DNA from: Candidatus Shapirobacteria bacterium
GTDB taxonomy: Bacteria > Patescibacteriota > Microgenomatia > UM-FILTER-40-11
NCBI GenBank assembly: GCA_020059745.1
Contig: JAGVBK010000003.1
Coordinates: forward strand, 68,492 to 132,491
Length of the DNA: 64,000 nucleotides
Reading direction: 5' to 3'
Part shown: positions 4,904-63,572 of the stretch, piece by piece
How the letters are laid out: each line of letters opens with the position of its first letter
How positions within the stretch are numbered: position 1 is the first letter of the stretch
The notes under the pieces: model-generated
The model's input: the letters and a program-made list of their open reading frames with translations, nothing else
Told to the model about the DNA's origin: nothing
The model's database searches: none
Made by a program: the position numbers and the translations under genes

Positions 4904-5778
4904 TTTCAATTATTTCACCGGTTTATAACGAGAAGGAAAGCTTAAAAGAACTTTATCAAAGAGTTGCCGAAGTTTTTAAAGATAAAAAGTTTGAATTAAT
5001 TTTTGTGAACGACGGCTCAACCGACGGGTCAGGTGAAGTTATTGAGGAAATTGCCAAGAAGGATACAAAAGTCCGGCTTGTTAGTTTTAAAAGAAACCAG
5101 GGGAAATCGAAAGCTTTAATGGCTGGTTTTGAAGCGGCTAAGGGAGAAGAGATAATTACCATGGACGCTGATCTTCAAGATAGGCCGGAAGAGACTCCCA
5201 AGCTTATTTCCGAGCTTTCACGATATGATTTGGTTTCCGGTTGGAAGAAGAAAAGAAACGATCCTTTTTTAAGTGTTGTTTTTTCCCGGGTTTTTAATTT
5301 TGTGGTTGGTATCACTACCGGGGTTTATCTTCATGACATTAACTGCGGGCTAAAAGCTTACCGCCGGGAAGTAACGGAAAACATAAATCTTTATGGAGAC
5401 CTTTACCGATTCATTCCGGTGTTGGCGTCAAGAGAAGGATTTAAGGTTGGTGAAATTGAGGTCCAGCATGAACAAAGAAAATATGGTTCATCCAAATACG
5501 GTTATTCAAAATTTTTGCGCGGATTTTTTGATTTGTTTACAATTTTGTTTTTAACAAATTTTAAGTTAAGGCCGCTTCATCTTTTTGGCTTAATCGGAGG
5601 AGTTATGATTTTAATGGGTTTAATCGCCTGCTCATATTTAACAATTGTTTGGTTTTCCGGAGAAGCTATCGGAGGCAGGCCGTTGCTCTTTTTGGGCGTT
5701 CTTTTAATAATTTCGGGGTTGCAGTTTTTTTTATCAGGGCTTTTGGCCGAGCTTATTATTTATTACAAAGAAAATTAA
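4900..5778 (+). CDS. Polyprenyl-phosphate sugar synthase of the GT2 GtrB/ArnC/DPM1 family.
   Basis: The N-terminus reads ISIISPVYNEKESL. It contains VNDGSTDGS and DADLQD motifs, plus two C-terminal TM helices characteristic of bactoprenol/dolichol-phosphate glycosyltransferases. Confidence 0.8.
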   Translation: MISIISPVYNEKESLKELYQRVAEVFKDKKFELIFVNDGSTDGSGEVIEEIAKKDTKVRLVSFKRNQGKSKALMAGFEAAKGEEIITMDADLQDRPEETPKLISELSRYDLVSGWKKKRNDPFLSVVFSRVFNFVVGITTGVYLHDINCGLKAYRREVTENINLYGDLYRFIPVLASREGFKVGEIEVQHEQRKYGSSKYGYSKFLRGFFDLFTILFLTNFKLRPLHLFGLIGGVMILMGLIACSYLTIVWFSGEAIGGRPLLFLGVLLIISGLQFFLSGLLAELIIYYKEN

Positions 5779-5781
5779 TTC

Positions 5782-6360
5782 ATGAAGGAGAGCCAAGATA
5801 AAAAGAAGTACACCCATTTTATAAAAAGAAAGTTTGTAGATTTTTTTCTTAATAAAATCAATGAAAAGATTGATGTATTGGACGCGCAAAAGATTGTTGA
5901 TATTGGGTGTGGGGAAGGATACCCTGAAAGTTTTTTTCTGGAAAGAAAGCCAAATTTAAAAATTACCGGAATAGATACTAACGACCAGCATTTAAAAGAA
6001 GCAAAGAAAAAAAACCCGAAAGCAGAATACATAAAAGGAGATATCTATAATTTAAATTTCAATAAAGATTTTTTTGATTTAGCGATTGTTTTAGAAGTGC
6101 TTGAGCATCTTAAGGAGCCCAATGTTGCCGTTGGGCAAGTTAAAAAAATATCCAAAAAGGCGATTTTTTCTGTTCCTTACGAGCCTTGGTTTTCTTTACT
6201 ATCCTTTCTTGGCGGAAGTTATATTAAAAGCTTAGGTAGACATCCTGAACATGTGAATTTTTGGAATATTGAGTCTTTTAAGAAAATGCTTCTTAAAGAT
6301 TATGGTAAAGTTAATATTGAGTTAGCCTTTCCCTGGATAATTGCCGTATGCGAAAAGTAG
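5782..6360 (+). CDS. Class I SAM-dependent methyltransferase.
   Basis: Motif I reads VDIGCGEGY. An acidic loop follows, then VLEVLEHL (the motif II/post-I region). Confidence 0.75.
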   Translation: MKESQDKKKYTHFIKRKFVDFFLNKINEKIDVLDAQKIVDIGCGEGYPESFFLERKPNLKITGIDTNDQHLKEAKKKNPKAEYIKGDIYNLNFNKDFFDLAIVLEVLEHLKEPNVAVGQVKKISKKAIFSVPYEPWFSLLSFLGGSYIKSLGRHPEHVNFWNIESFKKMLLKDYGKVNIELAFPWIIAVCEK

Positions 6361-7289
6361 CCTTAATAATTTTAAACTGGAACGGGTTTGAAATGACCCG
6401 CAATTGCCTCTCCTCAATTGTGAAAGCCGACGTAAAAGATTTTAATCTTGAGATATATGTTGTTGATAATGGTTCAACAGACGGAAGTACTGAGCGCCTA
6501 AGAGAGTTAATAGACAATTCGCTGATTACCGGTAACCGGTCACCGATCACTCTCAGGCTGATCGAAAACAAAGAAAATCTGGGGTTTGCGGAAGGAAACA
6601 ATGTGGGAATAAGAAAGGCTTTAGAAAATAAAGCGGATTATGTTTGTTTGCTTAATAATGATACCAGGGTTGATAAAAACTTTCTTGTTTTTTTAATAAA
6701 AGCGGCAGAAGAAGAAATAAATGCAGGAGTTATCGGGGGGAAAATTTATTTTGAAAAAGGATTCGAGTATTTTAAGGATAAATACAGTGAGAAAGAAAGG
6801 GGCAATGTTATCTGGTACGCCGGAGGGAAAATAGACTGGCTTAATGTTTACGCTTCCCATCGGGGAGTAGACGAAGTTGATAAAGGCCAGTATGAAAAAA
6901 GGGAAGAAACAGAATATGTTAATGGTTGCCTGATGCTGGTAAAAAAGGAAGTTTTTGAAAGAATCGGCCTTTTTAACCCCCAATACTATCTTTATTATGA
7001 AGAAAATGATTTCTGCCAACGAGCCAAAAAAGCAGGCTACAAGCTTTTTTATGAGCCGAAGTCAGTGATTTGGCACCTTAATGCCGGCTCTTCCGGCTCA
7101 GGTTCTGATCTTCACGATTATTTTTTGACCAGAAACAGAATGCTTTTTGGGATAAAACATGCTCCTTTCAAATCGAAAGCTGCTTTGCTAAAGGAGAGTC
7201 TTTGGATTTTAAGAAAAGGCAGAAAATGGCAGAAAAAGGCAATTTTGGACTTTTACAAAGGAAATTTAGGAAAAGGATCTTGGAAATGA
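6348..7289 (+). CDS. Family 2 glycosyltransferase of the rhamnosyltransferase-like subgroup.
   Basis: Contains ALIILNWNG...VVDNGSTDGS...RLIENKENLGFAEGNN, the typical GT2 signature. The DxD region reads LLNNDT. A heptamer-repeat patch lies inside the CDS at 6524-6550. Confidence 0.8.
   Translation: MRKVALIILNWNGFEMTRNCLSSIVKADVKDFNLEIYVVDNGSTDGSTERLRELIDNSLITGNRSPITLRLIENKENLGFAEGNNVGIRKALENKADYVCLLNNDTRVDKNFLVFLIKAAEEEINAGVIGGKIYFEKGFEYFKDKYSEKERGNVIWYAGGKIDWLNVYASHRGVDEVDKGQYEKREETEYVNGCLMLVKKEVFERIGLFNPQYYLYYEENDFCQRAKKAGYKLFYEPKSVIWHLNAGSSGSGSDLHDYFLTRNRMLFGIKHAPFKSKAALLKESLWILRKGRKWQKKAILDFYKGNLGKGSWK
6524..6550. repeat. Degenerate heptanucleotide tandem repeat of the GGTNACC family, inside a GT2 CDS.
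   Basis: GATTACC GGTAACC GGTCACC GATCAC at exact 7-nt phase. It encodes LITGNRSPI. Confidence 0.6.
6541..6578. repeat. 38-nt tract nearly identical (37 of 38) to 20526-20563 in a diverged GT2 paralog.
   Basis: Here it reads caccgatcactctcaggctgatCgaaaacaaagaaaat; the other copy differs at one position (...gatAgaaaac...). Flanking codons are much more diverged. Confidence 0.7.
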
Positions 7290-15857: not shown

Positions 15858-15906
15858 TAAAAATTGCCTCTTTTCAAAACTTAATTTTGGTTTTATACTT
15901 TACTTT

Positions 15907-16635
15907 ATGGAAAAAGAAAAAAAGTCAACCCGAAAACCCGCAGCCAAAAAACCTGTTCGAAAAACCAAGTCATTACCCAAAACCCAGGAAAACATTGTTG
16001 AAGCTGTTTCCGTAGAAACACTTACTGTCAGCGAAACTCCTGTTGTAAAAAATTCCGGTCCGAAAATAAACACCTTTTCTCTTATCTTTGTTCTGATGGT
16101 GGTTATTTTAGGTCTTTTGGGATACTTGTTTAGAGACAGGATTTTTGCAGCTACAGTTAATGGCAAGCCGATTTTCAGATATGAACTTAACGAGAGGATG
16201 GTTAAAACTTTTGGCAAGGAAGTTCTTGAAAATTTGATTGTCGAGAGGTTAGTCGCCGAAGAAGCAGCCAAAAACAGCATTGCCGTTACTTCAGACGAAG
16301 TTGATGAAGAAGTAAAAAAAGTATCAGAAAGCCTAGGGCCAGACACCAAGCTTGAGGACATTTTAAAGTTTCAAGGCATGACCCTTGAGGACTTTAAAGA
16401 GCAAATGAGATTAAAAATCCAGGTGAACAAACTTCTTGCCAATGAAGTGGTTATTTCCGATGAAGAAATTGCGGATTTTGTTGAAAACAACAGCCAGTCC
16501 TTAACCGCCGCAGACGATGAAGGCAAGAAAGAAGAGGCGAGAAACATTCTTAAAGAACAGAAGATTAACCAAGCTTTTGGAACTTGGATTGATGAGCTGA
16601 TGAAAAACAGCAAAATCACCAGGTATCTGAACTAA
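15907..16635 (+). CDS. Membrane-anchored SurA-N-domain-like chaperone protein with no PPIase domain.
   Basis: It has a lysine-rich N-terminus and a single TM helix. A helical domain follows that resembles the N-terminal chaperone domain of SurA/PrsA. Confidence 0.45.
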   Translation: MEKEKKSTRKPAAKKPVRKTKSLPKTQENIVEAVSVETLTVSETPVVKNSGPKINTFSLIFVLMVVILGLLGYLFRDRIFAATVNGKPIFRYELNERMVKTFGKEVLENLIVERLVAEEAAKNSIAVTSDEVDEEVKKVSESLGPDTKLEDILKFQGMTLEDFKEQMRLKIQVNKLLANEVVISDEEIADFVENNSQSLTAADDEGKKEEARNILKEQKINQAFGTWIDELMKNSKITRYLN

Positions 16636-34758: not shown

Positions 34759-35190
34759 ACCATGAACAATGAATGCTGAACCATGAATATTGAAACATGA
34801 ACAAGATTTTGAATTTTTACGACCTAGATGCATGGAAAGAGGGACGCAAATTAGTATTAATGAATTATAAATTAACGGAAAATTTTCCAGAAAAAGAAAA
34901 ATTTTGTCTGGTTTCACAAATGAACAGAGTGGCAATTTCAATAACTTCTAATATTGCAGAGGGATTTACGAGAATGGGGGTTAAAGATAAAACTAATTTT
35001 TATTATATGGCGAAAGCTTCTTTAACTGAATTACAAAATCAGTTTATCTTGGCTAAGGAGTTATCTTATGTCACTCCGAATGAATTTAATGAAACATGGC
35101 TGCAGACAGTTATAGTTCACAAATTAATAACAGGGATAATCAAAGGTGTTAATAATTTACATGGTTCATAGTTCATGATTCATAATTCAA
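34748..35190. mobile_element. Putative small cassette: the IVS-protein gene bounded by inverted heptanucleotide repeat arrays.
   Basis: The left arm at 34748-34804 has 8 units of NTGAANN at exact 7-nt spacing, spanning the upstream stop and the IVS start. The right arm at 35158-35190 has 4-5 units of the reverse complement TTCANNN, spanning the IVS stop and the downstream start. Confidence 0.3.
34797..35171 (+). CDS. Four-helix-bundle protein of the 23S rRNA intervening-sequence (IVS) protein family.
   Basis: 124 aa, all helical. The hallmark SNIAEGF motif is present, in the typical KF.IA.GS..E-like context. It is flanked by inverted heptamer arrays. Confidence 0.7.
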   Translation: MNKILNFYDLDAWKEGRKLVLMNYKLTENFPEKEKFCLVSQMNRVAISITSNIAEGFTRMGVKDKTNFYYMAKASLTELQNQFILAKELSYVTPNEFNETWLQTVIVHKLITGIIKGVNNLHGS

Positions 35191-38172: not shown

Positions 38173-39441
38173 ATGAGAGCAAAACTTCACCGGCTTTTTT
38201 TAGACAACCTTCTTCTAAAGGGTAGTTTTGTGATTTTAATTGGTTCAACCCTGGCTAATTTTGGGGCTTATCTTTATCATCTTCTTATGGGCCGGTTACT
38301 TGGCCCTGTAGATTACAGCGTTCTTGAAAGCTTAATTTCTGTTCTCTACTATCTCGGCATTCCCATGACAGTTTTTGGGGTGGTAGTGGTAAAGTATATT
38401 TCCGGCGAAAAGGATTCTGAAAAGATTGCCAGGTTTTTTACTAAAATTTTAAACAAAGTAGCGTTGTGGGGGTTTTATGGCTTAATTATTTTTCTCTTAC
38501 TTTTTCCCCTTTTTAGAAATCTTTTAAAAATAGATTCTTTTTTGCTTTTTTTAGGTTTAGGAATTACTGCTTATTTGGGGGTGTTCAATAGTCTTTTTTC
38601 ATATTCTCTTCAGGGAGTGATGAAGTTTAAAGACTTAAGTATCTATAGCGTTTTTTCTTCTTGGCTTAAGCTCTTTTTTTCGTTAGTTTTCCTTTATTTT
38701 GGTTTTAAAGTTTATGGAGCTTTAATAGGTTTGCTCTTGTCTTCGTTTTTAGCATGTCTTTTTGGTTTAAATTTGGCAAAAAAATATATTAATCTTTTTA
38801 AGTCAAACAACATAAGCATTAAGGATTCTTTTGGTAATATTAGATCTTATTCTCTGGCTGTTTTTTTTACAAATTTTTCTCTTATTTCTCTTTTTACGGC
38901 TGATATTATTTTGGCTCGTTATTTTTTGCCTTCTGTTGAGGCTGGATACTATGCTTCGCTATCAATTTTAGGAAAAGTTATTTTTTACGCCTCTAGTCCT
39001 ATTGTTTCGGTGATGTTTCCTCTGGTCTCAAGTAAACATTCGGCCGGTGAAAACTACCAGAAATTATTTTGGATGAGCTTTTCTTTAATACTGCTTACGT
39101 CTTTAATTATTTCTATAATATATTTTTCTTTTCCTGAGCTTATGATTAACTTTCTTTTTGGCAAAGCTTATCTTGAGGGCGCTTCAAGCTTGGGACTTTT
39201 CGCAGTTTTTTTGACTCTCTACTCACTCTGTTCTCTTTTTCTTAACTTTTACCTCTCAATTTCCCGGACAAAAGCAATTTTTTTAGCAGGATTTTTTGCG
39301 GTTGTTCAGGTGATTTTAATTTTTTTCAACCACGGAAGCATTGGAGAAATTGTCAGGATAAATATTTTCACTCTTTCTTTATTACTGCTTGGACTTTTGC
39401 TTTTTTATATTAAAAGCTTTAAATTTAAACAATGCAGTTAA
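38173..39441 (+). CDS. Wzx-like oligosaccharide flippase of the MOP superfamily.
   Basis: 422 aa with about 12 TM helices. The N-terminus (LKGSFVILIGSTLANFGAYLYHLLMGRLLGP.DYS) is typical of polysaccharide biosynthesis / Wzx proteins. Confidence 0.7.
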   Translation: MRAKLHRLFLDNLLLKGSFVILIGSTLANFGAYLYHLLMGRLLGPVDYSVLESLISVLYYLGIPMTVFGVVVVKYISGEKDSEKIARFFTKILNKVALWGFYGLIIFLLLFPLFRNLLKIDSFLLFLGLGITAYLGVFNSLFSYSLQGVMKFKDLSIYSVFSSWLKLFFSLVFLYFGFKVYGALIGLLLSSFLACLFGLNLAKKYINLFKSNNISIKDSFGNIRSYSLAVFFTNFSLISLFTADIILARYFLPSVEAGYYASLSILGKVIFYASSPIVSVMFPLVSSKHSAGENYQKLFWMSFSLILLTSLIISIIYFSFPELMINFLFGKAYLEGASSLGLFAVFLTLYSLCSLFLNFYLSISRTKAIFLAGFFAVVQVILIFFNHGSIGEIVRINIFTLSLLLLGLLLFYIKSFKFKQCS

Positions 39442-40223
39442 ATCTTCTCTCGGTCATTGTTCCTGCTTACAAACAGGAAAAAACTATAATTAAAGACCTT
39501 AAAAACATAGAGTCGGTATTAACTCAGCTCAACTGTGATTATGAGATTATTTGCGTGGCTGACGGCAAGATAGATAAAACCTTTGAAAAAGCAAAAAAGA
39601 TTGCTTCTCAAAAAATTAAGGTTGTCGGTTACAGGGAAAATCGCGGTAAGGGCTATGCGGTAAGATATGGCATGGCCAGAGCCAAAGGCGAGGTGGTGGC
39701 CTTTATTGACGCCGGCATGGACATAAACCCAAGGGGGTTGCCGATGCTTTTGGAGCATATGAAGTGGTATGATTCGGATGTTATTGTCGGCTCAATCAGA
39801 CATTCGGCCTCAAAAGTTATAGGCTATCCCCTTAAAAGAAGAATTTTTAGTGTCGGTTACCACTTTTTAACCAGGTTTCTTTTTGGTTTAAGAATAACTG
39901 ACAGCCAAAGAGGGATAAAGATATTTAAAAGAGAGGTTCTTGAAAAGGTATTGCCTAGAATGATAGTTAAAAAATTCTCCTTTGATATTGAAATGTTAGC
40001 CGTGGCTTATCATCTTGGCTTTAAAAAAATTCATGACGGTCCGGTGGAAATGGATGCAAGAAAGTTTAAGTATTCAAGCATAAGATATACAACAGTAAGC
40101 TCGATGTTTATTGATACTCTTGCCATTTTTTATCGATTACATCTTTTAAGATACTATTCCAGTAAAAATAAAAGAAAGTGGGTGTATGACCCTGACTTGG
40201 ACATGAATATAAATATAGGATGA
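39432..40223 (+). CDS. Family 2 glycosyltransferase, polyprenyl-phosphate glucosyl/mannosyl-transferase-like (DPM1/ALG5-like).
   Basis: The N-terminus reads LSVIVPAYKQEKTI. A DxD-like region reads FIDAGMD. The overall length and spacing fit the GtrB/DPM1 group. Confidence 0.65.
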   Translation: MQLNLLSVIVPAYKQEKTIIKDLKNIESVLTQLNCDYEIICVADGKIDKTFEKAKKIASQKIKVVGYRENRGKGYAVRYGMARAKGEVVAFIDAGMDINPRGLPMLLEHMKWYDSDVIVGSIRHSASKVIGYPLKRRIFSVGYHFLTRFLFGLRITDSQRGIKIFKREVLEKVLPRMIVKKFSFDIEMLAVAYHLGFKKIHDGPVEMDARKFKYSSIRYTTVSSMFIDTLAIFYRLHLLRYYSSKNKRKWVYDPDLDMNINIG

Positions 40224-41248
40224 AAAAGCCAAAAGCCTCTGTTATCATTCCCGTTAGAACCATTACCCCTTATGTTAGAGAGACCGTTGATCATCTTTTA
40301 AGACAGACAGAAAAAAACTTTGAAATTATTGTTGTTACGGACAAAAAAGAGGAACTAAAAGGGGTAATGGTAATTGCCAGCGGCCAGCCGACACCTTCTT
40401 TTAAAAGAAATCTAGGAGCAAAGAAGGCAAAAGGAGAAATTCTTGCTTTTTTAGATGATGATTCTTACCCCTGCAAAGATTGGCTGAAAAACGCTCTTAG
40501 AATTTTTAATGATCGCTCACTGAGCGATCACCGGCCACTGACGGCTGTCTGCGGACCCACCTTAACCCCTCCTCATGATAATATTTTTCAGAAAGCTTCA
40601 GGTTGTGTTTGGTCTTCTTTTTTAGGCAGCGGAGGAGCAGGGGTTTACCGAAACAGGGTTAAAGAAAGGCGGGAAGTTGACGATTTTCCTTCAGTTAACC
40701 TTTTAGTCAAGAAAAAAGATTTTGAAAAAGTATCTGGTTTTGACATTAACCATTGGCCGGGAGAGGATACTAAGCTTTGCCTAGACTTAACTTCTTTAGG
40801 GAAAAAAATTATTTATGACCCTGGGGTTTTAGTTTATCACCACCGCCGAGCAGTTATTGTTCCCCATTTAAAGCAAATAAGCCGGTATGCTTTAAGAAGA
40901 GGACATTTTGCCAAAATTTTTCCCAAGACTTCCTTAAGGATCGGATATTTACTGCCTTCTTTTTTGGCTTATGGCCTTTTGTTTGGCTTGGGTGCTATTT
41001 TACTTTTTCCTTTTTTAGCTTTTTTTTATCTTTCCTTTCTTGCAATTTATTTTATCGCACTTTTCCTTACCGGCCTTGAGGTGCAGATTAGGGAAAAGGA
41101 TTTAAGAATAACTATTTTGACCATAATTTCAATTTTTTTGACCCATTTAGTTTATGGTTTTCTTTTTCCAATCGGATTTTTGCAAAAGGAACTTAAAACA
41201 GTGGCGCATCAAGTTGACGAAAAAAGAAAAGTTTATATAGGTGGTTAG
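40220..41248 (+). CDS. Family 2 glycosyltransferase with C-terminal TM helices.
   Basis: Contains ASVIIPVRTITPYV...IIVVTD...FLDDDS (DxD) and 3-4 C-terminal TM helices. Its stop overlaps the stop of the convergent minus-strand gene. Confidence 0.7.
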   Translation: MKKPKASVIIPVRTITPYVRETVDHLLRQTEKNFEIIVVTDKKEELKGVMVIASGQPTPSFKRNLGAKKAKGEILAFLDDDSYPCKDWLKNALRIFNDRSLSDHRPLTAVCGPTLTPPHDNIFQKASGCVWSSFLGSGGAGVYRNRVKERREVDDFPSVNLLVKKKDFEKVSGFDINHWPGEDTKLCLDLTSLGKKIIYDPGVLVYHHRRAVIVPHLKQISRYALRRGHFAKIFPKTSLRIGYLLPSFLAYGLLFGLGAILLFPFLAFFYLSFLAIYFIALFLTGLEVQIREKDLRITILTIISIFLTHLVYGFLFPIGFLQKELKTVAHQVDEKRKVYIGG

Positions 41249-43104
41249 TTTTGGGAAGAGATTTTGTTTAAAACTTCATTAATCCTCTGGTTTTCAGGGT
41301 CCATGCTTTTTGCCTTAAGAAGCGCCTCTTTTGCCTCGGAAGTTTTGCCCATGTTAAGGAAAACAATTCCCTTGGCAAAATAAAGGCCCGGGTTTTCCGG
41401 ACTTATAGAAAGGGCTTTGTCGAGAAAGGAAATAGCAGAATCAAAGTCTTTGTTTTCTGCATAAATGACAGCTAAGTTTTGATATGACTGCCAGAGGTTG
41501 GGATTTGCCTTTATCGCCTGTTCGTAATTTTGCCTTGCCAGGTCAAGTTTGCCCATTTGCAAATAGGTGTTGGCCAAGTTATGGTAGGCGTCGCCATAAT
41601 TGGGAAGAAGCTTTATGGCAGCTTGAAACTCTTCAACAGCTTTTTCAAATTCCCCTCTTCTTGCATAGAGGTCTCCAAGATTATTGTGGTTTTGTGGGCT
41701 TGAAGGCGAAGTTTTTCCGGCGGCGATCCAAAGAGTATCCTGATTTTTCCAATCCATATTTCTGTAAACAGTTCTTATGGAAAGAGCAGTTATTAGCAAA
41801 GAAAAAATTAGCCAAGAATAGAATTTATCTTTAAGTAACTCTCCAAGTTTAACGATTAAAACCGAAACAATGACAAAAATGCCAAGCGTACCAAAATAGG
41901 CGTATCTTTCGGCAATAATCCAGGAGATTTTTATTGGCGTAAGCATGGGCATGAGGCCGATAAAAAAGAAGGCAAGCCAAAAGGAGTAAGTTCTGAGCTT
42001 TTTGTTAAAGTAAGTGTAAGCAATGGCACCAAAATAAGCCAAAGTAGTAATTAGCATCATAATATAGCTTGACACAGAAAAAGCCAGCTCAGAGTGGTAG
42101 AGGGTAAGTTTTTGCGGCCAGAAAATAAGATAAAAATAATTGGCCATGGCGGTAGGAATCTGGGTTAGAGGATTGTATCGCCCTCCGTCCTGATAGTGAA
42201 CCGTTTTATGGATATGTTGAATGTTTTTCAAAGTTCCGCCGAAAACAATAAGTGAAATACAGATAAGGCTGATTAGGAAAAACGGAATCAGGATTTTCCA
42301 GTTTTTACGCAAATTCCCTTGCGTCAGTTCATAAAAAAACAAAATTCCCGGAAAAGAAACCGCTTTCTCTTCAGTAAAAAGGGCCAAAAGGAAAAAAACG
42401 ATGGAGAATAAATAATATTTAACCGGTTTTTTTTCTTTTTTGGAAAGCAAATAAGAGAGAAAAGAAAAAAGCAGGAAAAAAGTGTATTGCGAGTGGATGG
42501 CTCCCGATATCCAGGTTACCGCTTCACTTAAAAGCGGATGAACAGCAAAAAGCCCGGCAGACATAAAAGCTAAAGGAAAGGAGGAAAAAAGCAAAGAAAT
42601 GATTGTAAAAATCAAAAGAACCGAGCCTAGGTGAGTAATAATTCCAATCATTCTGAATACAGCCGGATTAAGGCCGCCGATTTTATAAGCTAGCGTTAAA
42701 GTAAGAGGTCTTAGAAAAGTAAAAACATTACGGTTGCCTACGAAAGCTTTGGAGAAACTCGATATTCTCTTGCTCTCTTTGATGGTGGCAATATCGTCGG
42801 ATAAAAACTCGTTATTTAGGGAATTAAAATAAACTCCGATAACCAGGAGCGAAAGAGCCAGCAAAGCCCACCAGTTTTTTTTAAAGAATTGTTTAAAGCA
42901 AAAAGCATTTTTTTCTTTTGTCTCGTCTTCCTTTTTTCTATGATTTTCACTTAGATATTTGCTAACCTTTTCTTCAGACCAGACTTCACTAAGATGATTA
43001 ATTATTTCGTTTTCATCAACTTTAAGTTTACCGGCAAGTTCGGAAAGCGAAAATTTTCTTAAATTCTTTTTTACAAATTTTTTTTGTGATTTGCTTAACG
43101 GCAT
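41245..43104 (-). CDS. TMTC-like protein: a GT-C-type TM domain followed by C-terminal TPR repeats.
   Basis: 619 aa. It has a cytoplasmic N-terminus, about 10 TM helices, then 5 or more canonical TPR units (NLGDLYARRGEFEKAVEEFQAAIKLLPNYGDAYHNLANTYLQMGKLD...). The architecture resembles the TMTC O-mannosyltransferase family with its PMT_2/DUF1736-like core. It is the only minus-strand gene in the window. Confidence 0.6.
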   Translation of the reverse strand: MPLSKSQKKFVKKNLRKFSLSELAGKLKVDENEIINHLSEVWSEEKVSKYLSENHRKKEDETKEKNAFCFKQFFKKNWWALLALSLLVIGVYFNSLNNEFLSDDIATIKESKRISSFSKAFVGNRNVFTFLRPLTLTLAYKIGGLNPAVFRMIGIITHLGSVLLIFTIISLLFSSFPLAFMSAGLFAVHPLLSEAVTWISGAIHSQYTFFLLFSFLSYLLSKKEKKPVKYYLFSIVFFLLALFTEEKAVSFPGILFFYELTQGNLRKNWKILIPFFLISLICISLIVFGGTLKNIQHIHKTVHYQDGGRYNPLTQIPTAMANYFYLIFWPQKLTLYHSELAFSVSSYIMMLITTLAYFGAIAYTYFNKKLRTYSFWLAFFFIGLMPMLTPIKISWIIAERYAYFGTLGIFVIVSVLIVKLGELLKDKFYSWLIFSLLITALSIRTVYRNMDWKNQDTLWIAAGKTSPSSPQNHNNLGDLYARRGEFEKAVEEFQAAIKLLPNYGDAYHNLANTYLQMGKLDLARQNYEQAIKANPNLWQSYQNLAVIYAENKDFDSAISFLDKALSISPENPGLYFAKGIVFLNMGKTSEAKEALLKAKSMDPENQRINEVLNKISSQN

Positions 43105-43157
43105 AGCTATTTTTTTAGTTTAGCAAAAGGGCAGAGGTCTGACAATAAAGAAAAAAT

Positions 43158-46302: not shown

Positions 46303-47811
46303 ATGAAAATATTGCTAGCTAATCCTAGTTGCAGAATTAAAATCGGACAGGACAAAGAGAGGTATTTTGTGCGGGCAGGGAGCAGGTGGCCTTTTTCTAC
46401 CGTTAAAAAGCGGAAACAGCCGCCTGAGTATATTCCTTTTCCTTTTTATCTTGCATATACTGCTGCTCTCTTAGAAAAAGAAGGACATGAAGTTATTGTT
46501 GATGACGGTGTGGCCACTAATCAGACAGAAAAAGAATTTTTAGACAATGTTTTAAAATCAAGTCTCAAGGTAATTCTTTTTGAGACCTCAACGCCGACCA
46601 TAAATTATGACTTAAGGCTGGTAAAAAGAATAAAAAAATTACTCCCCGATACTGTGGTTTGTCTTGCTGGTACTCATGCAACCACTTTTTTTAAAGAAAT
46701 TTTAATAGAAAGCAAGGGGGTTGATTTTGTTTTTCTTGGTGAATATGAGATAAATTTTTCTAAACTGGTTAATGCTTTGGATAAAAAGTGGAACCTCGAA
46801 AAAATCAAAGGCATTGCTTTTAAGAAAGATGGCAAAATATTTTTCTCGGAGCCGGAATTGGTTGAACCCCTTGATCAGCTTCCTTTTCCATCCCGCCATC
46901 TTTTTCCGAATAACAAAAACCCTGACCCAACCATTTATTGGGATGGGTTTTGCCAGAATAAACCTGCCATTCAAATGCATGCCTCAAGGGGGTGCCCTTT
47001 TCGGTGCAATTTCTGCCTTTGGAATCAAGTAATGTATCGGAACGGAAAGTACCGTTTTTTTTCAGCAAAAAGAGTAGCTGATGAAATGGAAGAAGTGATT
47101 AAAAAGTATAAGGCAAGGGAAATATATTTTGACGATGACACTTTTACGGCTAATAAAAAACAGGTGATTGAGGTGTGTAGGGAAATAAAAAAAAGGAAGT
47201 TAAAAGTAAGCTGGTCGGTAATGGGAGATGCTATGGTAACTGATAGGGAAATGATAGAGGCAATGGCAGATGCTGGTTGCATCGGTATGAAATTCGGAGT
47301 TGAAAGCGGAAACCTGAAGATCTTAAGACACATTGAAAAACCTGTTAATTTTGAAAAATTAAGAGAGTTCACGAACTGGTGCGCAAAAAGGAGGATAAAA
47401 ACCCATGCCACTTTTACTTTTGGCCTTTCCGGAGAAACAGGGGAGACAATGAGAGAAACAATGGAACTTGCCAAAAGCCTTGATGTGGATTCTGTCCAAT
47501 TTAGCATTACCACTCCATTTCCCGGAACAAGATACTATGAAGAAGTAAAAAGGAAAAAAATGCTTAAGGCTAAAAAATGGGCTGATTTTGATGGCTCTTC
47601 GGCCTCGATAGTAAAATTTGGAAAATTATCAAGTAAGGAAGTCGTTGAATTTTACAAAAGTGCTTCAAGGAGATGGCTTATTCATAAACTTACCAAGCCA
47701 AGATGGGTACAGAGACAATTTAAAAATCTGAATAGACTAAGGAAAGGGCAGGGGAGCGGTGTAATTTTTGAGAAAACCTTTAGGGTAATTGGGCTTCTGA
47801 AAGGACAATAA
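46303..47811 (+). CDS. Cobalamin-binding (class B) radical SAM enzyme.
   Basis: It has an N-terminal B12-binding-like domain, then ASRGCPFRCNFC (CxxxCxxC) and an elongated rSAM core. It is paralogous to the 55661 and 62058 genes. Confidence 0.75.
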   Translation: MKILLANPSCRIKIGQDKERYFVRAGSRWPFSTVKKRKQPPEYIPFPFYLAYTAALLEKEGHEVIVDDGVATNQTEKEFLDNVLKSSLKVILFETSTPTINYDLRLVKRIKKLLPDTVVCLAGTHATTFFKEILIESKGVDFVFLGEYEINFSKLVNALDKKWNLEKIKGIAFKKDGKIFFSEPELVEPLDQLPFPSRHLFPNNKNPDPTIYWDGFCQNKPAIQMHASRGCPFRCNFCLWNQVMYRNGKYRFFSAKRVADEMEEVIKKYKAREIYFDDDTFTANKKQVIEVCREIKKRKLKVSWSVMGDAMVTDREMIEAMADAGCIGMKFGVESGNLKILRHIEKPVNFEKLREFTNWCAKRRIKTHATFTFGLSGETGETMRETMELAKSLDVDSVQFSITTPFPGTRYYEEVKRKKMLKAKKWADFDGSSASIVKFGKLSSKEVVEFYKSASRRWLIHKLTKPRWVQRQFKNLNRLRKGQGSGVIFEKTFRVIGLLKGQ

Positions 47812-50369: not shown

Positions 50370-51494
50370 ATGTTTAAGAAAGCATTATTTATTCTTAAAA
50401 ATAATCCTTCATATTTTTTCCCTTTAATAGCCGGTTTATTGAGAAGAATTGTTTTGGTGAAAACATTTAGCCGTTTCCTTTACCCCGAGCTTATTACAAT
50501 CACGGTTACCAACCGCTGTAATTTTAATTGCCCGGGTTGCTCTTCGAACTCACCCTTATATACTCGTAAAAATGGCAAAGTTAAAGAAGTCAGCCTCAAA
50601 GATATTAAAAAAGTTATTGATGAAGTGGCCGTTTTTAAACCTTTTATATATTTAAACGGTGGCGAGCCGACTTTAAGAGATGACTTAGTTGAGATAATAA
50701 AATATGTTAAAAGCAAAAAATTAGTTTGCTCTTTTACTACAAACGGAAGCCTATTAACTCCGGATTTGTTAGAGAAATTAGTAAAAGCCAAACTTGATTT
50801 TCTGTCGGTTTCAATTGACGGGCCAAAAGAGTTCCACGACAAAATTCGTGGCTTTAAAGGTGCTTTTGATAGAGCGGTTTCCGGTTTGGAAAGCTTGAGA
50901 CTGCTAAAAAATAAATACAAAGTTTCTTATCCACATGTAAGACTGGCCTCAATTATTTATCCTGAGAATATTAATAATTCAAAATATATTATTAATTTGG
51001 CCAATAATCTTAAGGTGAATGAGTTGGGTTTTGGTTTTCTTATGTATTATCCAGAAAAAATAATTGGGATGCAGAAAAAGTTTGTTGAAAAAAACAAAAC
51101 AGGCGGAGAAGAACCGATTGGTTTAAAGATTGACAACAATTACAGATTTAACTTTGACGAAAAGAAATACCTAAATTTTTTGGCTTATCTAAAGAAGAGC
51201 AAAATTCCATACTTCTTTGCATATCAAGGCAATCAATATAAAGAGTATTTTGACCCCGGCGTCTTTCCGAGTAATAAATCAGTTTGTTTGACACCTTGGA
51301 ACAATTTACTTATTCATCCTAACGGAGATTTAGGTGTTTGTCAGGGATTTAGGTTTGGCAGTATTTATAAAAGCAGCATTCTTAAGCAATGGAATAGTGA
51401 GGAAATGGTCAGGTTTAGGAAAAAAAGAGCCCAGGGGCCTTTTCCTGTCTGTTTCAGGTGTAATGAGGGCCAAAAAATTAAATTCGATAAATGA
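50370..51494 (+). CDS. Radical SAM protein with a SPASM/twitch C-terminal domain.
   Basis: Contains TNRCNFNCPGC (CxxxCxxC). The C-terminal cysteines are CLTPW...CQGF...CFRC. Confidence 0.75.
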   Translation: MFKKALFILKNNPSYFFPLIAGLLRRIVLVKTFSRFLYPELITITVTNRCNFNCPGCSSNSPLYTRKNGKVKEVSLKDIKKVIDEVAVFKPFIYLNGGEPTLRDDLVEIIKYVKSKKLVCSFTTNGSLLTPDLLEKLVKAKLDFLSVSIDGPKEFHDKIRGFKGAFDRAVSGLESLRLLKNKYKVSYPHVRLASIIYPENINNSKYIINLANNLKVNELGFGFLMYYPEKIIGMQKKFVEKNKTGGEEPIGLKIDNNYRFNFDEKKYLNFLAYLKKSKIPYFFAYQGNQYKEYFDPGVFPSNKSVCLTPWNNLLIHPNGDLGVCQGFRFGSIYKSSILKQWNSEEMVRFRKKRAQGPFPVCFRCNEGQKIKFDK

Positions 51495-55364: not shown

Positions 55365-55664
55365 ATGTCATTTTTTATAGCTTTAATTTCACTTATTCTG
55401 GTTAACATTTTTTTACTAAAAATAGAAAGCGAATTAATTTATGTTTTTATACCAGTAATTGTGATTTTTACAGAAAAGCACTTTAAAGTCGATGCAAAAA
55501 TAACTATAGTTTCGGGACTCTTTTTTTTATCTTTATGTGCGGTTTTCATGCTTATAAATGAAACCGTGGCATCTAAGCTCGCTGTCTGGGCGTTTTTGCT
55601 TTTGCTTTCCGGAACATTTAAAATGATATTTCAGCAAGAAGAAACTAAAAAATTAAAAAAATGA
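55365..55664 (+). CDS. Small membrane protein with 3 TM helices.
   Basis: 99-aa ORF packed between overlapping neighbours. It is hydrophobic with a lysine-rich tail. Confidence 0.45.
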   Translation: MSFFIALISLILVNIFLLKIESELIYVFIPVIVIFTEKHFKVDAKITIVSGLFFLSLCAVFMLINETVASKLAVWAFLLLLSGTFKMIFQQEETKKLKK

Positions 55665-57145
55665 AGATAGTTATTGGTTATCCGCCGCTTAAGTCAGAGA
55701 AAGGTATTCCTCAGATTTCTCAAAATCGCCAATTCCAATGGACAGCAGGCGGTCCGCTTTCTTATTTTATTTACCCGGTTATCCCCGCTTATGCAGCCAG
55801 TTTATTAAAAGAAAGAGGTTATGAAGTTTACTGGCTTGATGGTTTGGCCGAGAAAATGACTTACGAGCAGTGGGAAAAGAAACTGCTGGAAATTAAACCT
55901 GATATTTTAGCCATTGAAACAAAAACTCCGGTTATCAAATACCACTGGCAAATCATTAAACAACTTAAAAAACTGGTCACTGATCACTGGTCACTGGTTA
56001 CTGTCTTGATGGGCGATCATGTTACTGCCTTGCCAGAAGAATCATTTTCAAAATGTCCTGTCGACTATATTTTAACCGGCGGTGATTATGATTTTGGCCT
56101 TCTTTCCATTGCTAATCATTTAAGCAAAGGCGAGAAGTTAGATTCTGGCATATATTACCGCACCAAAAACGATGATTCGAAGTTCATGGTTCATGGTTCA
56201 AAGTTCAAGTTAAATCATAGTCTTGACGAGTTGCCCCTAATTGATCGGGATTTAACAAAGTGGCACCTCTATGCTTACAGAAATTCGAATTTTTACCGCG
56301 CTCCCGGAGCCTACACAATGTTTGGTCGGGATTGCTGGTGGGGAAAATGTTCATTTTGTTCCTGGACAACTCTTTTTCCCGGAGAAAAATTCAGAGTAAT
56401 GAGCGTTAAACAGGCGATTGCTGAAGTGAAGAATTTGGTTGAAAACTATCATGTTAAGGAAATAATGGACGATTCGGGCACTTTTCCGACCGGCGATTGG
56501 TTAAGGGAATTTTGTGAAGAAATTATTAAAAGAGGATACCAGAAAAAAATTAATATTAACTGCAATATGCGGTTTAACTGCGGGCTTTCACAAAAAGATT
56601 ATAACTTGATGGGGAAAGCGGGTTTCAGGTTTATTCTTTATGGTCTTGAATCGGCGAACCAGGAAACACTTGACAAGCTTAATAAAAATCTCAAGGTTGA
56701 GCAAATAGAGCCGGCCCTTAGCGCGGCAAAAAAGGCTGGGCTCAAGCCCCATGTAACCGTAATGGTCGGCTACCCGTGGGAAGGAGAAAAAGAAATTCAA
56801 AAAACAGTCTCTTTTGTCAAAAATCTTTTTGAAAAAGAGTTGGTTGATACAATGCAGGCCACAGTAGTAATTCCTTACCCCGGAACTCCTCTTTTTGAGG
56901 AATGTAAAAAGAAAAAACTTCTTAAAACTTTGGACTGGAATAGGTATGACATGAGAGAGCCCATTATGAAGGCTGGGGTTTCCGATGAAAAGCTAATGTG
57001 TGCCGTCAGGGAGCTATATAGCAGTTCCGTTTGGAATAAGACCTTTGTATTTAATACACTTAAGAAATTAGGAAACTATGATGGTTTTAAGTATGTTTCT
57101 TTTCAGGGATTTAAGTATTTAGGAAAACTTTTAGAATTCAAGTGA
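55661..57145 (+). CDS. Cobalamin-binding (class B) radical SAM enzyme.
   Basis: It has an N-terminal B12-binding-like domain, then FGRDCWWGKCSFC (CxxxCxxC). It carries two heptamer-repeat patches, at 55974-56001 and 56183-56210, inside the CDS. Confidence 0.75.
   Translation: MKIVIGYPPLKSEKGIPQISQNRQFQWTAGGPLSYFIYPVIPAYAASLLKERGYEVYWLDGLAEKMTYEQWEKKLLEIKPDILAIETKTPVIKYHWQIIKQLKKLVTDHWSLVTVLMGDHVTALPEESFSKCPVDYILTGGDYDFGLLSIANHLSKGEKLDSGIYYRTKNDDSKFMVHGSKFKLNHSLDELPLIDRDLTKWHLYAYRNSNFYRAPGAYTMFGRDCWWGKCSFCSWTTLFPGEKFRVMSVKQAIAEVKNLVENYHVKEIMDDSGTFPTGDWLREFCEEIIKRGYQKKININCNMRFNCGLSQKDYNLMGKAGFRFILYGLESANQETLDKLNKNLKVEQIEPALSAAKKAGLKPHVTVMVGYPWEGEKEIQKTVSFVKNLFEKELVDTMQATVVIPYPGTPLFEECKKKKLLKTLDWNRYDMREPIMKAGVSDEKLMCAVRELYSSSVWNKTFVFNTLKKLGNYDGFKYVSFQGFKYLGKLLEFK
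55974..56001. repeat. Heptamer tandem repeat TG(G/A)T(C/T)AC with 4 units, inside a cobalamin radical-SAM CDS.
   Basis: TGGTCAC TGATCAC TGGTCAC TGGTTAC. It encodes VTDHWSLVT, which is absent from the paralog at 46303. Confidence 0.6.
56183..56210. repeat. Heptamer tandem repeat GTTCA(T/A)(G/A) with 4 units, inside a cobalamin radical-SAM CDS.
   Basis: GTTCATG GTTCATG GTTCAAA GTTCAAG. It belongs to the same family as the arrays flanking the IVS gene. Confidence 0.6.
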
Positions 57146-61996: not shown

Positions 61997-62057
61997 ATTT
62001 ATCTATTAATTTGTTTTGTTAGTTTCTGTTATTAGATTAGTACTGAAAGGAAGCAAA

Positions 62058-63572
62058 ATGAAAGTATTATTGTTAAACCCGTATCGAACGACAACTTTCA
62101 ATCGGAGAACTTATCCCTTGGAACCAATTGGTTTGCTCTATTTAGCTACATATATTCGCGAAAAGCTTTCAAAAAAATATCCATCGATAAAAGTTAGTAT
62201 TGTTGATACTTATTTTAATGGTCCTCCAGCTTGCACTAAAACCAAGCTAGGTTATAGAGCGGGGTTGAGCGACGAAGAAATTGAGGAAATTCTAAAAAAA
62301 GAGAAACCCGACATGATTGGGATAAGCAACAATTATACCTCATACACACCCGACAGTCTGTCGTTGGCTGAGTTGGCAAAGAAAACATGCCCTAAGGCGG
62401 TAATAGTACTTGGAGGTGCTCATGCCACAGTGGATCACGAATTTTTAATTACTAAGGATTGTGTTGATGTTGTTGTGAGAGGAGAGGGGGAGGAGACCTT
62501 CAGAGAAATGATTTACAACATTTATAAGAAAAAAGGATTGAGGAACGTATTGGGAATTACTTATAAAGAAGGTAAAAGAATTATTTCTAATTCAGACAGA
62601 CCTTTAATTGAAGATTTAGATGAGTTGCCTATTCCTGACAGGTCCTTTATTAATTATCCGGAATATCTCAAAAAGACTTCCGAAATATACTTTGTGCCTG
62701 AAAAGAAGCCTGTAGGAACAATTTTTTCTTCCAGAGGCTGTATGTACCATTGCGTTTTTTGTAGTACCCATAAAGTATGGTCGGATAAATGGCGGTATCG
62801 GTCTGCCAAGAATGTCATAAAAGAGATTAACTATCTTAGGAAGAAGTATGGGGTCCGAGAGTTTGCCTTTGAGGATGATCAGTTTTTGGGAAGTAATGAA
62901 AGGGTTGTTGAAATATGCAAAATGATTATCAAACAAAAGATGGATATCTCTCTTATTGTACCTCCAGGACTATCCCCATCATTGTTAAAGAAAGAAACCT
63001 TGAAATATTTAAAGCAGGCGGGTCTTTATAGGGTATCTTTTTCGGTTGACGCCGGGAGTCCGAAATCAGTTGCATATGTCAAAAAACCGGTTAATTTAGA
63101 CAAAGTTAGAGACATTGTTGCTTATGCTAACCGTTTGGGATTATGGACTTATGGGTTTTTTGTAATCGGGTATCCCTATGAGACTATTAAAGATCTTGAA
63201 GAGGTTAGGGATTACGCTTATGGATTGAAAATGGATTTTATTAGATTTTATATTGCTCAACCCCACATGGGATCTGACCTTTATGAAATATATTTAAAGG
63301 AGGGAAAGATTGATAAACGGGCAAAAGAACAACACACTATGTTCGATTCTCTATTCGGAACAGATCATGTTTCCGCCAAAAAACTGTTTAGATTAAGAGA
63401 AGAATATGAGAACAGTTATCTCTTATATCATATAAAGAACCATTTACCTTCACTAAAGTATTTTTTTTGGGAGTTTATTCCTAAAATTTCCAGTCCCAAA
63501 AAGATTTTTTATCTATTTAGAGTAATGGTTTCTTACACTAAACAGATATCCATAACCCCATCTAAAAAGTAA
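62058..63572 (+). CDS. Cobalamin-binding (class B) radical SAM enzyme.
   Basis: It has an N-terminal B12-binding-like domain, then SSRGCMYHCVFC (CxxxCxxC). I prefer the ATG at 62058, which has an AAGGAAG SD sequence, over the ORF-track start at 62016. Confidence 0.75.
   Translation: MKVLLLNPYRTTTFNRRTYPLEPIGLLYLATYIREKLSKKYPSIKVSIVDTYFNGPPACTKTKLGYRAGLSDEEIEEILKKEKPDMIGISNNYTSYTPDSLSLAELAKKTCPKAVIVLGGAHATVDHEFLITKDCVDVVVRGEGEETFREMIYNIYKKKGLRNVLGITYKEGKRIISNSDRPLIEDLDELPIPDRSFINYPEYLKKTSEIYFVPEKKPVGTIFSSRGCMYHCVFCSTHKVWSDKWRYRSAKNVIKEINYLRKKYGVREFAFEDDQFLGSNERVVEICKMIIKQKMDISLIVPPGLSPSLLKKETLKYLKQAGLYRVSFSVDAGSPKSVAYVKKPVNLDKVRDIVAYANRLGLWTYGFFVIGYPYETIKDLEEVRDYAYGLKMDFIRFYIAQPHMGSDLYEIYLKEGKIDKRAKEQHTMFDSLFGTDHVSAKKLFRLREEYENSYLLYHIKNHLPSLKYFFWEFIPKISSPKKIFYLFRVMVSYTKQISITPSKK

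Follow-up and report, generated by a model that had tools for sequence, protein, structure and literature searches.

A stretch of 64,000 nucleotides from a Candidatus Shapirobacteria bacterium (contig JAGVBK010000003.1, positions 68,492 to 132,491; hereafter the window) carries on its minus strand a gene whose product joins a helix-turn-helix (HTH)-like domain, a membrane domain of eleven transmembrane (TM) helices and four tetratricopeptide repeats (TPRs). The comparison of its membrane domain with that of the animal TMTC1-4 proteins supports, at the level of sequence, its identity as a TMTC-like member of the glycosyltransferase C (GT-C) superfamily, and it is referred to here as the TPR-GT-C protein. 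It is identical to RJR24500.1, and its annotation in databases reads only “tetratricopeptide repeat protein”. TMTC1-4 are protein O-mannosyltransferases acting on cadherins, and their loss in animals results in brain malformation and hearing loss. The reading proposed here, and held with moderate confidence, is that the bacterial protein would be an active TMTC-like GT-C glycosyltransferase with a protein as its acceptor.

Relationship of the membrane domain to the TMTC proteins

A profile built from 12 animal sequences of the published alignment of the TMTC1-4 N-terminal region (Eisenhaber et al. 2021, supplement; PMC7801869) scores the TPR-GT-C protein at 72.2 bits in hmmsearch (E 2.6e-24) and 16 of 16 members of its family at 52-98 bits, as against no more than 11.5 bits for the other GT-Cs of the window (the PMT_2 paralogs, YfhO and the PIG-V-like protein). 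The alignment runs end to end, from profile position 3 to 432 and over residues 78-449. Consistent with that, hhalign of the family against TMTC gives 99.85% (E 8e-31) over 365 columns at 23% identity, compared with 97.7% at 13% identity for the family against the window's PMT_2 paralogs. The PMT_2/ArnT-type GT-Cs are far more distant than TMTC, and the roughly ten PMT_2 paralogs of the window have no TPR matches.

Residue invariance, counted in a 40-sequence family alignment, is found (40/40) for F100, S102, D103, D104, R151, H158, F186, H189, P190, E194, W198, E259, Y336, E339, the run A398-E-R-Y, Y403, R444, T445, R448 and N449. The invariant residues include the DD of TMTC motif M1 and the ERxxY of M7, the roles of which in TMTCs have been described (PMC7801869). 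The blocks shared with TMTC1-4 are FxxDD, GLxPxxF(H/R)xxNxxxH, LFAVHPxxxEAV, NP, AERxxY and (K/R)TxxRN: in the first extracytoplasmic loop (EL1) the FVxDD of TMTCs reads FLSDD in the family, GLxPxxFHxxNxxLH between EL1 and TM2 reads GLNPAVFRMIGIITH, LFAVHPIHTEAV at the end of TM3 reads LFAVHPLLSEAV, AERVLY in EL5 reads AERYAY, and (K/R)TxxRN after TM11 reads RTVYRNMDW. At the position of motif M4 (KE(T/Q)xxT, EL3), 35 of the 40 sequences have E246-K247, in swapped order relative to KE. The residues conserved in EL4 are NP, Q315, P317, W329-P330, Y336 and E339, with the DW of TMTCs absent.

In database terms the TM domain lies outside all curated families. Full-length scans against Pfam and NCBIfam returned TPR families only and nothing informative on the TM domain; the TM region alone, as a single sequence, had no Pfam match at E<=10 and no sequence match in the PDB, and a profile of 16 family TM regions also found no match among PDB sequences. 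DUF1736 (PF08409) had no match at E<=10 in the TPR-GT-C protein or in any of 16 family members and is listed for none of 120 homologs in their precomputed annotation. PMT_2 (PF13231) does not match the protein, matches 3 of the 16 members weakly (best E 1e-5) and is carried as a precomputed match by 14 of the 120 homologs. Membership of a DUF1736/PMT_2 group, as assigned by the first-pass annotation of this DNA, is therefore not borne out by Pfam. A literature search on DUF1736 in bacteria yielded the TMTC motif paper (PMC7801869) only, in which prokaryotic TMTC homologues are already noted.

At the level of structure, the multi-pass GT-C fold (fold type A of the superfamily) was found. The output of Foldseek against the PDB was dominated by TPR matches; the GT-C structures matched were, with the figure given for each entry, Pmt4 (19.5), ALG12 (19.4), AglB (18.7), Pmt2 (18.0), ArnT (17.6), STT3B (17.3), AftA (15.9) and PglB (15.6), and no TMTC structure was among the PDB matches obtained. 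Wzy_C, the O-antigen ligase family, matched no family member tested, and no O-antigen ligase was among the top structural matches. An O-antigen-ligase/Wzy_C assignment was rejected on these two grounds, which removes the main scenario that the first-pass annotation had named as able to overturn it.

Family-averaged hydropathy, the helices assigned by DSSP in the structural model and positive-inside counts of lysine and arginine (K/R) give 11 TM helices, rather than the ten or so counted earlier. The N-terminal 75 residues carry a mean of 16 K/R across the family, every predicted inside loop is rich in K/R and poor in acidic residues, and the loops with DD, with FAVHP..E, with the EL4 helix and with AERY are predicted to face outward. 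In the predicted topology the N-terminus lies on the inside, and the TPRs, which follow directly on TM11, lie on the outside. The same topology is described for TMTC (PMC7801869), and in TfpW of Pseudomonas aeruginosa both the DDx loop and the TPR domain have been placed in the periplasm by PhoA/LacZ fusions (bioRxiv 10.1101/2020.04.19.049825).

The TPR assignment itself was sound, with the Pfam families TPR_1/2/8 matching residues 472-616 (E ~1e-28), while the count of “five or more” repeats has to be lowered to four (residues 470-601) plus a C-terminal cap helix (606-618). The first repeat begins 19 residues past TM11, and the model contains no beta-sheet domain. The concave positions 2, 5, 6 and 9 of TPR1-3 are nearly all invariant (Q471/D505/Q539, N474/H508/Q542, N475/N509/N543 and D478/N512), R482 being another nearly invariant residue of the concave face of TPR1, and mean conservation within the TPRs amounts to 0.83 at concave positions versus 0.61 at the other non-structural positions. 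TPR4 is variable and is missing from shorter homologs. Since the groove of TPR1-3 is nearly invariant and TPR4 variable, the groove, adjacent to the active site, probably accommodates a single conserved ligand.

Table 1. Features of the TPR-GT-C gene and of neighbouring genes, in window coordinates
Feature	Coordinates	Strand	Details
TPR-GT-C gene	41245..43104	-	HTH-like domain + 11-TM GT-C domain + 4 TPRs; 619 aa; ATG start
Putative tri-helical HTH-like domain, cytoplasmic and basic, + linker helix	42910..43104	-	residues 1-65
11-TM GT-C (type A) catalytic domain, TMTC-like	41752..42879	-	residues 76-451
F100-L-S-D103-D104, DD catalytic motif (TMTC M1)	42793..42807	-	outside loop 1 after TM1; F, S, D, D 40/40
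G144-L-x-P-x-x-F-R151-x-x-N-x-x-x-H158 block	42631..42675	-	EL1/TM2 boundary; TMTC counterpart GLxPxxFHxxNxxLH
F186-A-V-H189-P190-x-x-x-E194-x-V-x-W198 block	42511..42549	-	outer end of TM3; matches TMTC LFAVHPIHTEAV
EL4 outside loop	42076..42240	-	residues 289-343; membrane-parallel helix 312-328; positional equivalent of DUF1736 loop
A398-E-R400-Y-x-Y403 (TMTC M7, ERxxY, phosphate-binding Arg)	41896..41913	-	outside loop EL5; 40/40
R444-T-x-x-R-N-x-D-W452	41749..41775	-	TM11/TPR junction; common to TMTC, (K/R)TxxRN
Extracytoplasmic TPR domain	41251..41697	-	residues 470-618; 4 repeats + cap helix; Pfam, model, conservation
Overlap of two convergent stop codons	41245..41248		4 nt, TTAG; sequence read on both strands
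Promoter-like site TTGTCA-17-TAAACT	43117..43145	-	TG-extended; in 53-nt divergent spacer; ends 13 nt before ATG
GT2, likely partner, candidate maker of lipid-linked donor	39432..40223	+	homolog in 22/36 loci
Convergent GT2 with C-terminal TM helices	40220..41248	+	most frequent co-located partner, 26/36 loci
Wzx/MOP-type flippase (Polysacc_synt), candidate donor flippase	38173..39441	+	23/36 loci
B12-binding radical SAM (HpnJ-like)	46303..47811	+	adjacent to homologs in 26 loci; 24/36 loci
B12-binding radical-SAM paralogs	46303-47811, 55661-57145, 62016-63572	+

Donor, acceptor and gene neighbourhood

A protein acceptor is proposed because every characterised fusion of a GT-C domain with TPRs (TMTC1-4, TMEM260 and TfpW) glycosylates proteins; it is plausible by precedent and not by genomic context, and the case for it may be called evenly balanced. 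With TMTC1-4 the TPR-GT-C protein shares, besides the blocks given above, the 11 TM helices, the N-terminus inside and the TPRs right after TM11 on the non-cytoplasmic side. It differs from them in lacking DUF1736 and motifs M2, M3 and M5, in reading EK for KE, in its extra HTH-like domain, in having four TPRs where TMTCs carry more, and in its bacterial host, with a presumed polyprenyl rather than dolichyl carrier.

TfpW is a pilin D-arabinofuranosyl transferase of 646 aa that uses a polyprenyl-phosphate-linked sugar as its donor (bioRxiv 10.1101/2020.04.19.049825). It resembles the TPR-GT-C protein, by its published description, in its similar size, cytoplasmic N-terminus, 11 predicted TM helices, DDx in loop 1 and periplasmic C-terminal TPR domain, and it differs in that no HTH domain is reported for it and in its loop-4 motif YX6PFX7P, of which the TPR-GT-C protein shows the first half only (Y310-x6-P317). 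The earlier statement that bacterial members are uncharacterised holds for the clade within the Candidate Phyla Radiation (CPR) but not in general, as TfpW is a characterised bacterial 11-TM GT-C with a periplasmic TPR domain. The gene tfpW lies directly downstream of pilA, whereas pilin-like N-termini occur within ±10 kb of TPR-GT-C homologs at 1 of 86 loci and nowhere in the window, and a TfpW-type linkage to pilin was rejected on this gene neighbourhood. Pilin glycosylation in CPR bacteria has so far only been predicted.

Human TMEM260, an O-mannosyltransferase whose TPR domain is both necessary and sufficient for the binding of the acceptor peptide, likewise combines an 11-helix GT-C core with a luminal TPR domain that selects the acceptor peptide. 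It carries a Rossmann-like domain between TM11 and the TPRs, which the TPR-GT-C protein lacks; DUF2723 matched no family member tested, and a TMEM260/DUF2723 assignment was rejected on that and on the different architecture.

Apart from the TPR-GT-C gene, the window is one co-directional glycan-assembly island. Its GT-Cs number at least 17 (about 10 PMT_2, 2 YfhO, 2 GT87, a PIG-V-like, an ALG3-like and an AftD-like protein, and the TPR-GT-C protein itself), and it further encodes about 12 GT2 and 4 GT4 glycosyltransferases, 2-3 Wzx flippases, 4 B12-binding radical S-adenosylmethionine (B12-rSAM) proteins with an HpnJ-like best match, 2 SPASM radical-SAM proteins, about 7 methyltransferases, an aminotransferase and an epimerase. 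For a small CPR genome to devote so much of its content to glycan assembly is unusual. A protein with a SurA_N-like chaperone domain is encoded mid-island (15907-16635, plus strand, with a shadow minus-strand open reading frame (ORF) at 15900-16361). CPR bacteria are presumed to be single-membraned, and a chaperone of periplasmic type would not be expected in them. An unannotated, very hydrophobic ORF of 99 aa (55365-55664, plus strand) separates the gene of the AftD-like GT-C from one for a B12-rSAM protein. The gap after the last PMT_2 paralog holds a 124-aa ORF (34797-35171, plus strand) that looks by eye like a 23S-rRNA-intervening-sequence/four-helix-bundle (Avd-like) protein, and at one homolog locus (L004) a pair resembling a diversity-generating retroelement, RVT_1 plus a bAvd/23S_rRNA_IVP gene, lies at 5698-7109, some 3-4 kb upstream of the TPR-GT-C homolog.

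Which of these genes accompany the TPR-GT-C gene elsewhere was counted in the 36 homolog loci whose flanks extend for 8 kb or more in either direction: a GT2 is co-located in 27, a Wzx flippase in 23, a B12-rSAM gene in 24, and GT2 and Wzx together in 21. The GT2 at 39432-40223 finds its best matches in the polyprenyl-phosphate sugar synthases (PgfS, PpgS, ArnC and Dol-P-hexose transferase). The B12-rSAM protein at 46303-47811 has as its best NCBIfam match HpnJ, a hopanoid-sugar ring-contraction enzyme, at 266 bits, below the cut-off of 577. Across species, the gene found most often directly beside the TPR-GT-C gene is a homolog of this one, which suggests an unusual radical chemistry on the sugar or its carrier. 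With a profile of the window's 9 PMT_2 paralogs, PMT_2 genes were found within ±10 kb of homologs in 7 of the 36 loci, with two or more of them in an array in 3, so that co-conservation with PMT-like arrays, which the first-pass annotation had looked to, is weak. Its argument that a TPR module beside such an array strengthens the case for protein targets is unsupported or too strong in view of these counts, of the glycopolymer-type GT-Cs in the window, and of PMT_2 not being protein-specific, since ArnT belongs to it.

In the mechanism proposed here for a protein-directed enzyme, the GT2 at 39432-40223 would load a sugar onto polyprenyl phosphate at the cytoplasmic face, following which the Wzx/MOP flippase would move the lipid-linked sugar outward. 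The GT-C domain would then bind the lipid phosphate via R400, E246/K247 and the Y336/E339 region, D103/D104 would activate the acceptor hydroxyl, as suggested by homology with TMTC, ArnT and PMT, and the TPR groove directly past TM11 would hold the acceptor over the active site. By analogy with the characterised GT-C-TPR fusions, the acceptor would be a serine or threonine of a secreted or surface protein; the sugar need not be mannose, and transcription would start from the gene's own promoter in the short divergent spacer. A polyprenyl-phosphate-linked donor is presumed in view of R400 (ERxxY) and the neighbouring GT2 that resembles polyprenyl-phosphate-sugar synthases. The division of labour between a polyprenyl-phosphate-sugar synthase, a flippase and a GT-C is that of three-component extracytoplasmic glycosylation, for which the GtrABC system and the pentofuranose systems of Kelly et al. 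are examples, and with which the locus shares a synthase-like GT2, a MOP flippase and a GT-C; in those systems the GT-C, as described, has no TPRs and acts on polysaccharide (PMC11194591), and in the locus studied here the three genes are not co-oriented.

It has to be noted that a number of observations weigh against this proposal. Of the TMTC motifs, M2 (SHKSYRP) is absent from the 40-sequence alignment, its aligned positions being variable, M3 (RxD) is absent, the aligned position reading SGG.Y, and M5 (DW, a proposed metal ligand) is replaced by WPxxLxLY(H/Q)(S/T)E with the invariant Y336 and E339; models of TMTCs assign the mannose contacts to M2 and M3 and give M5 a part in binding metal and phosphate (PMC7801869). 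With M1 and M7 invariant and M2 and M3 gone, the catalytic base and the phosphate-binding arginine are kept and the sugar-contacting residues changed, so that mannose cannot be assumed as the sugar; given the loss of M5 and the swapped M4 as well, the details of donor binding may differ from TMTC. DUF1736, which all TMTCs match at E<1e-30 in their TM7-TM8 loop (PMC7801869), fails on the family, and PMT_2 mostly does. The interpretation in the first-pass annotation is supported in part; the TMTC-like assignment stands as to the end-to-end homology of the TM domain and the combination of 11 TM helices with TPRs, and falls as to DUF1736 and the three missing motifs. The matches of the GT2 to polyprenyl-phosphate-sugar synthases all lie below curated cut-offs, the 64-kb window encodes no pilin, no S-layer protein and nothing else that is obviously an acceptor, pilin-like genes are all but missing from the homolog loci, and GT-Cs typical of glycopolymer work (YfhO, GT87, AftD-like) surround the gene.

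The same observations can be accommodated by an alternative in which the chemistry is unchanged and the acceptor is a glycan, the sugar being added to, or branched on, a surface glycopolymer or a lipid-linked glycan of the island, and the TPR groove serving to bind that polymer or else a protein with which the enzyme is partnered in the assembly machinery. For such an acceptor GtrC, YfhO, AftA-D and the pentofuranose GT-Cs are precedents, and it is well established that GT-Cs of the three-component scheme can decorate polysaccharides (PMC11194591). The glycan island around the gene holds Wzx, many GT2/GT4, sugar-modifying radical-SAM, methyltransferase and aminotransferase genes, with glycopolymer-type GT-Cs alongside, to which the PIG-V-like and ALG3-like proteins may be added; its conserved partners are GT2, Wzx and B12-rSAM and no protein substrate, no pilin or other acceptor gene being linked to it; and the residues that do not vary in the groove (N, Q, H, D, R and W) would also be typical of a sugar-binding site. 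Against a glycan acceptor stand the action on proteins of all characterised GT-C-TPR fusions and the fact that the TMTCs are the closest characterised relatives in sequence. Moreover, bacterial protein-glycosylation loci look like polysaccharide loci, so that the context does not discriminate between the two. A glycan acceptor is a possibility that we take seriously, if tentatively.

The HTH-like domain and the antiparallel gene

What had been described as a short cytoplasmic N-terminal segment comprises 75 residues and includes a conserved domain that is modelled as folded, putatively tri-helical and HTH-like. Residues 1-65 are modelled as four helices with a predicted local distance difference test (pLDDT) score of 84-89, and the weak Pfam matches across 25 members are all to HTH families (HTH_10 in 10/25 and NirDL-like HTH in 9/25, with further weak matches to IF2_N, Sigma70_r3 and PF0610-like_N in 7/25 each). 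Among 85 homologs, each from an independent locus, 52 carry the domain; the remaining 33 are about 540 aa long and start almost at TM1, as does the published TMTC alignment, which has no equivalent of it.

The TPR-GT-C gene is the only credible minus-strand gene of the window, as had been claimed, since the three further minus-strand ORFs of at least 130 aa (15900-16361, 47025-47513 and 50480-50920) each lie inside a longer plus-strand ORF, the few intergenic gaps are occupied by small plus-strand ORFs, and no tRNAs are found. The 4-nt overlap of its stop codon with that of the convergent GT2 is likewise correct, the TTAG reading as TAG on the plus strand, where it ends the GT2, and as TAA on the minus strand, where it ends the TPR-GT-C gene; the junction has no terminator-like hairpin in the scan, in agreement with the earlier view that no terminator separates the two genes.

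This placement recurs. At all four homolog loci inspected by hand the gene points against the genes on either side of it, and in most cases it converges with the same GT2 or with a B12-rSAM gene; over 85 homolog loci, 72% of the genes within ±5 positions are antiparallel to it, and the downstream neighbour is convergent in 57 of 81, in 32 of these 57 overlapping or within 20 nt. The pattern is one of the HTH-bearing sub-clade, in which 86% of the ±5 neighbours are antiparallel (49% for HTH-less homologs), all of them are so in 20/40 loci (0/21), and the downstream neighbour is convergent in 44/50 (13/31). Since the gene is again antiparallel at homologous loci of other species, the placement is not due to chance and is inherited. 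The association between HTH domain and orientation has Fisher p values of 5e-5 to 1e-6 over loci that are not phylogenetically independent, so that one ancestral rearrangement followed by retention could explain it.

The promoter-like site in the divergent spacer is not significant alone, and the promoter/terminator scan as a whole was not statistically enriched over shuffles. No Shine-Dalgarno motif precedes the TPR-GT-C gene. In the HTH-bearing homologs, strong -10-like boxes precede the ATG by 10-40 nt and a Shine-Dalgarno-like motif occurs in 1 of 40. Within the 70 nt upstream of the gene, compared over 85 loci (L001-L085), a TAGTATAACATA box recurs in L003, L005, L012, L019 and L052. The closeness of the -10 boxes to the ATG, together with the rarity of Shine-Dalgarno motifs, suggests short-leader or leaderless mRNAs in these homologs, and with -10-like sites just upstream both there and in the window, the TPR-GT-C gene is probably its own transcription unit, opposite to the glycan island.

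Such an arrangement is common for regulators, and it has been considered whether the protein might also, or instead, be a membrane-tethered one-component regulator, its HTH domain binding DNA near the cluster and its TPR/GT-C portion sensing the status of donor or acceptor, so that in the HTH-bearing sub-clade the protein would directly control how the surrounding island is transcribed in response to surface glycosylation. This would explain why many CPR lineages keep the gene antiparallel, on its own and with its own promoter, and the basic character of the N-terminal domain agrees with it. However, the putative recognition helix (residues 31-41, consensus ExExLxYLK) is acidic at its start, no operator or palindrome shared upstream of the HTH-bearing genes was found, only the -10-like boxes, one third of the family does without the domain, the link with orientation could reflect the single ancestral event mentioned above, and the invariant catalytic residues show catalysis to be clearly under selection, which makes a regulatory role unlikely. 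That the protein is no GT-C transferase, but an O-antigen-ligase/Wzy_C-type TPR protein or a catalytically dead TPR scaffold, would suit the TPR-only Pfam/NCBIfam output and the unmatched TM region, and is effectively refuted and scarcely credible in the face of the missing Wzy_C, the TMTC profile score and the invariant catalytic residues.

A large family centred on the CPR

Among 5.8 billion proteins searched, the TM region finds hundreds of full-length relatives at 40-53% identity, about 540-625 aa in length, with C-terminal TPRs and nearly all from Patescibacteria; the family as a whole comprises 5,283 representatives (clusters at 50% identity) at E<=1e-30 and forms part of a superfamily of about 88,000. 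When genomes representative of their species were scanned, relatives turned up in 190, the named ones being nearly all CPR (Daviesbacteria, Roizmanbacteria, Shapirobacteria, Levybacteria, Beckwithbacteria, WWE3 and Moranbacteria), with a few labelled Omnitrophota. None of the three Omnitrophota-labelled homologs (L040, L055 and L072) has the HTH domain, and the genes around them mostly run in the same direction as they do. Many loci carry implausible labels of metagenome-assembled genomes, such as “uncultured Gammaproteobacteria”, which leaves the taxonomic range beyond the CPR uncertain.

The kind of protein is already known, as prokaryotic TMTC homologues have been noted before, some relatives carry the JGI label “protein O-mannosyl-transferase”, and TfpW has the same architecture. 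What is new here is a very large, mostly CPR family outside curated models, with a distinct motif set and a reduced TPR domain with an invariant groove, and, in one sub-clade, an HTH-like fusion combined with a conserved antiparallel placement. A bacterial family of about 5,300 clusters at 50% identity is thereby recognized as a genuine sequence relative of the TMTCs, offering compact bacterial models, of about 540-620 aa and with 3-4 TPRs, for TMTC-type catalysis and for the TPR-guided choice of acceptor, and it points to a conserved surface modification in ultra-small episymbiotic bacteria, the cell-surface chemistry of which is almost unexplored.

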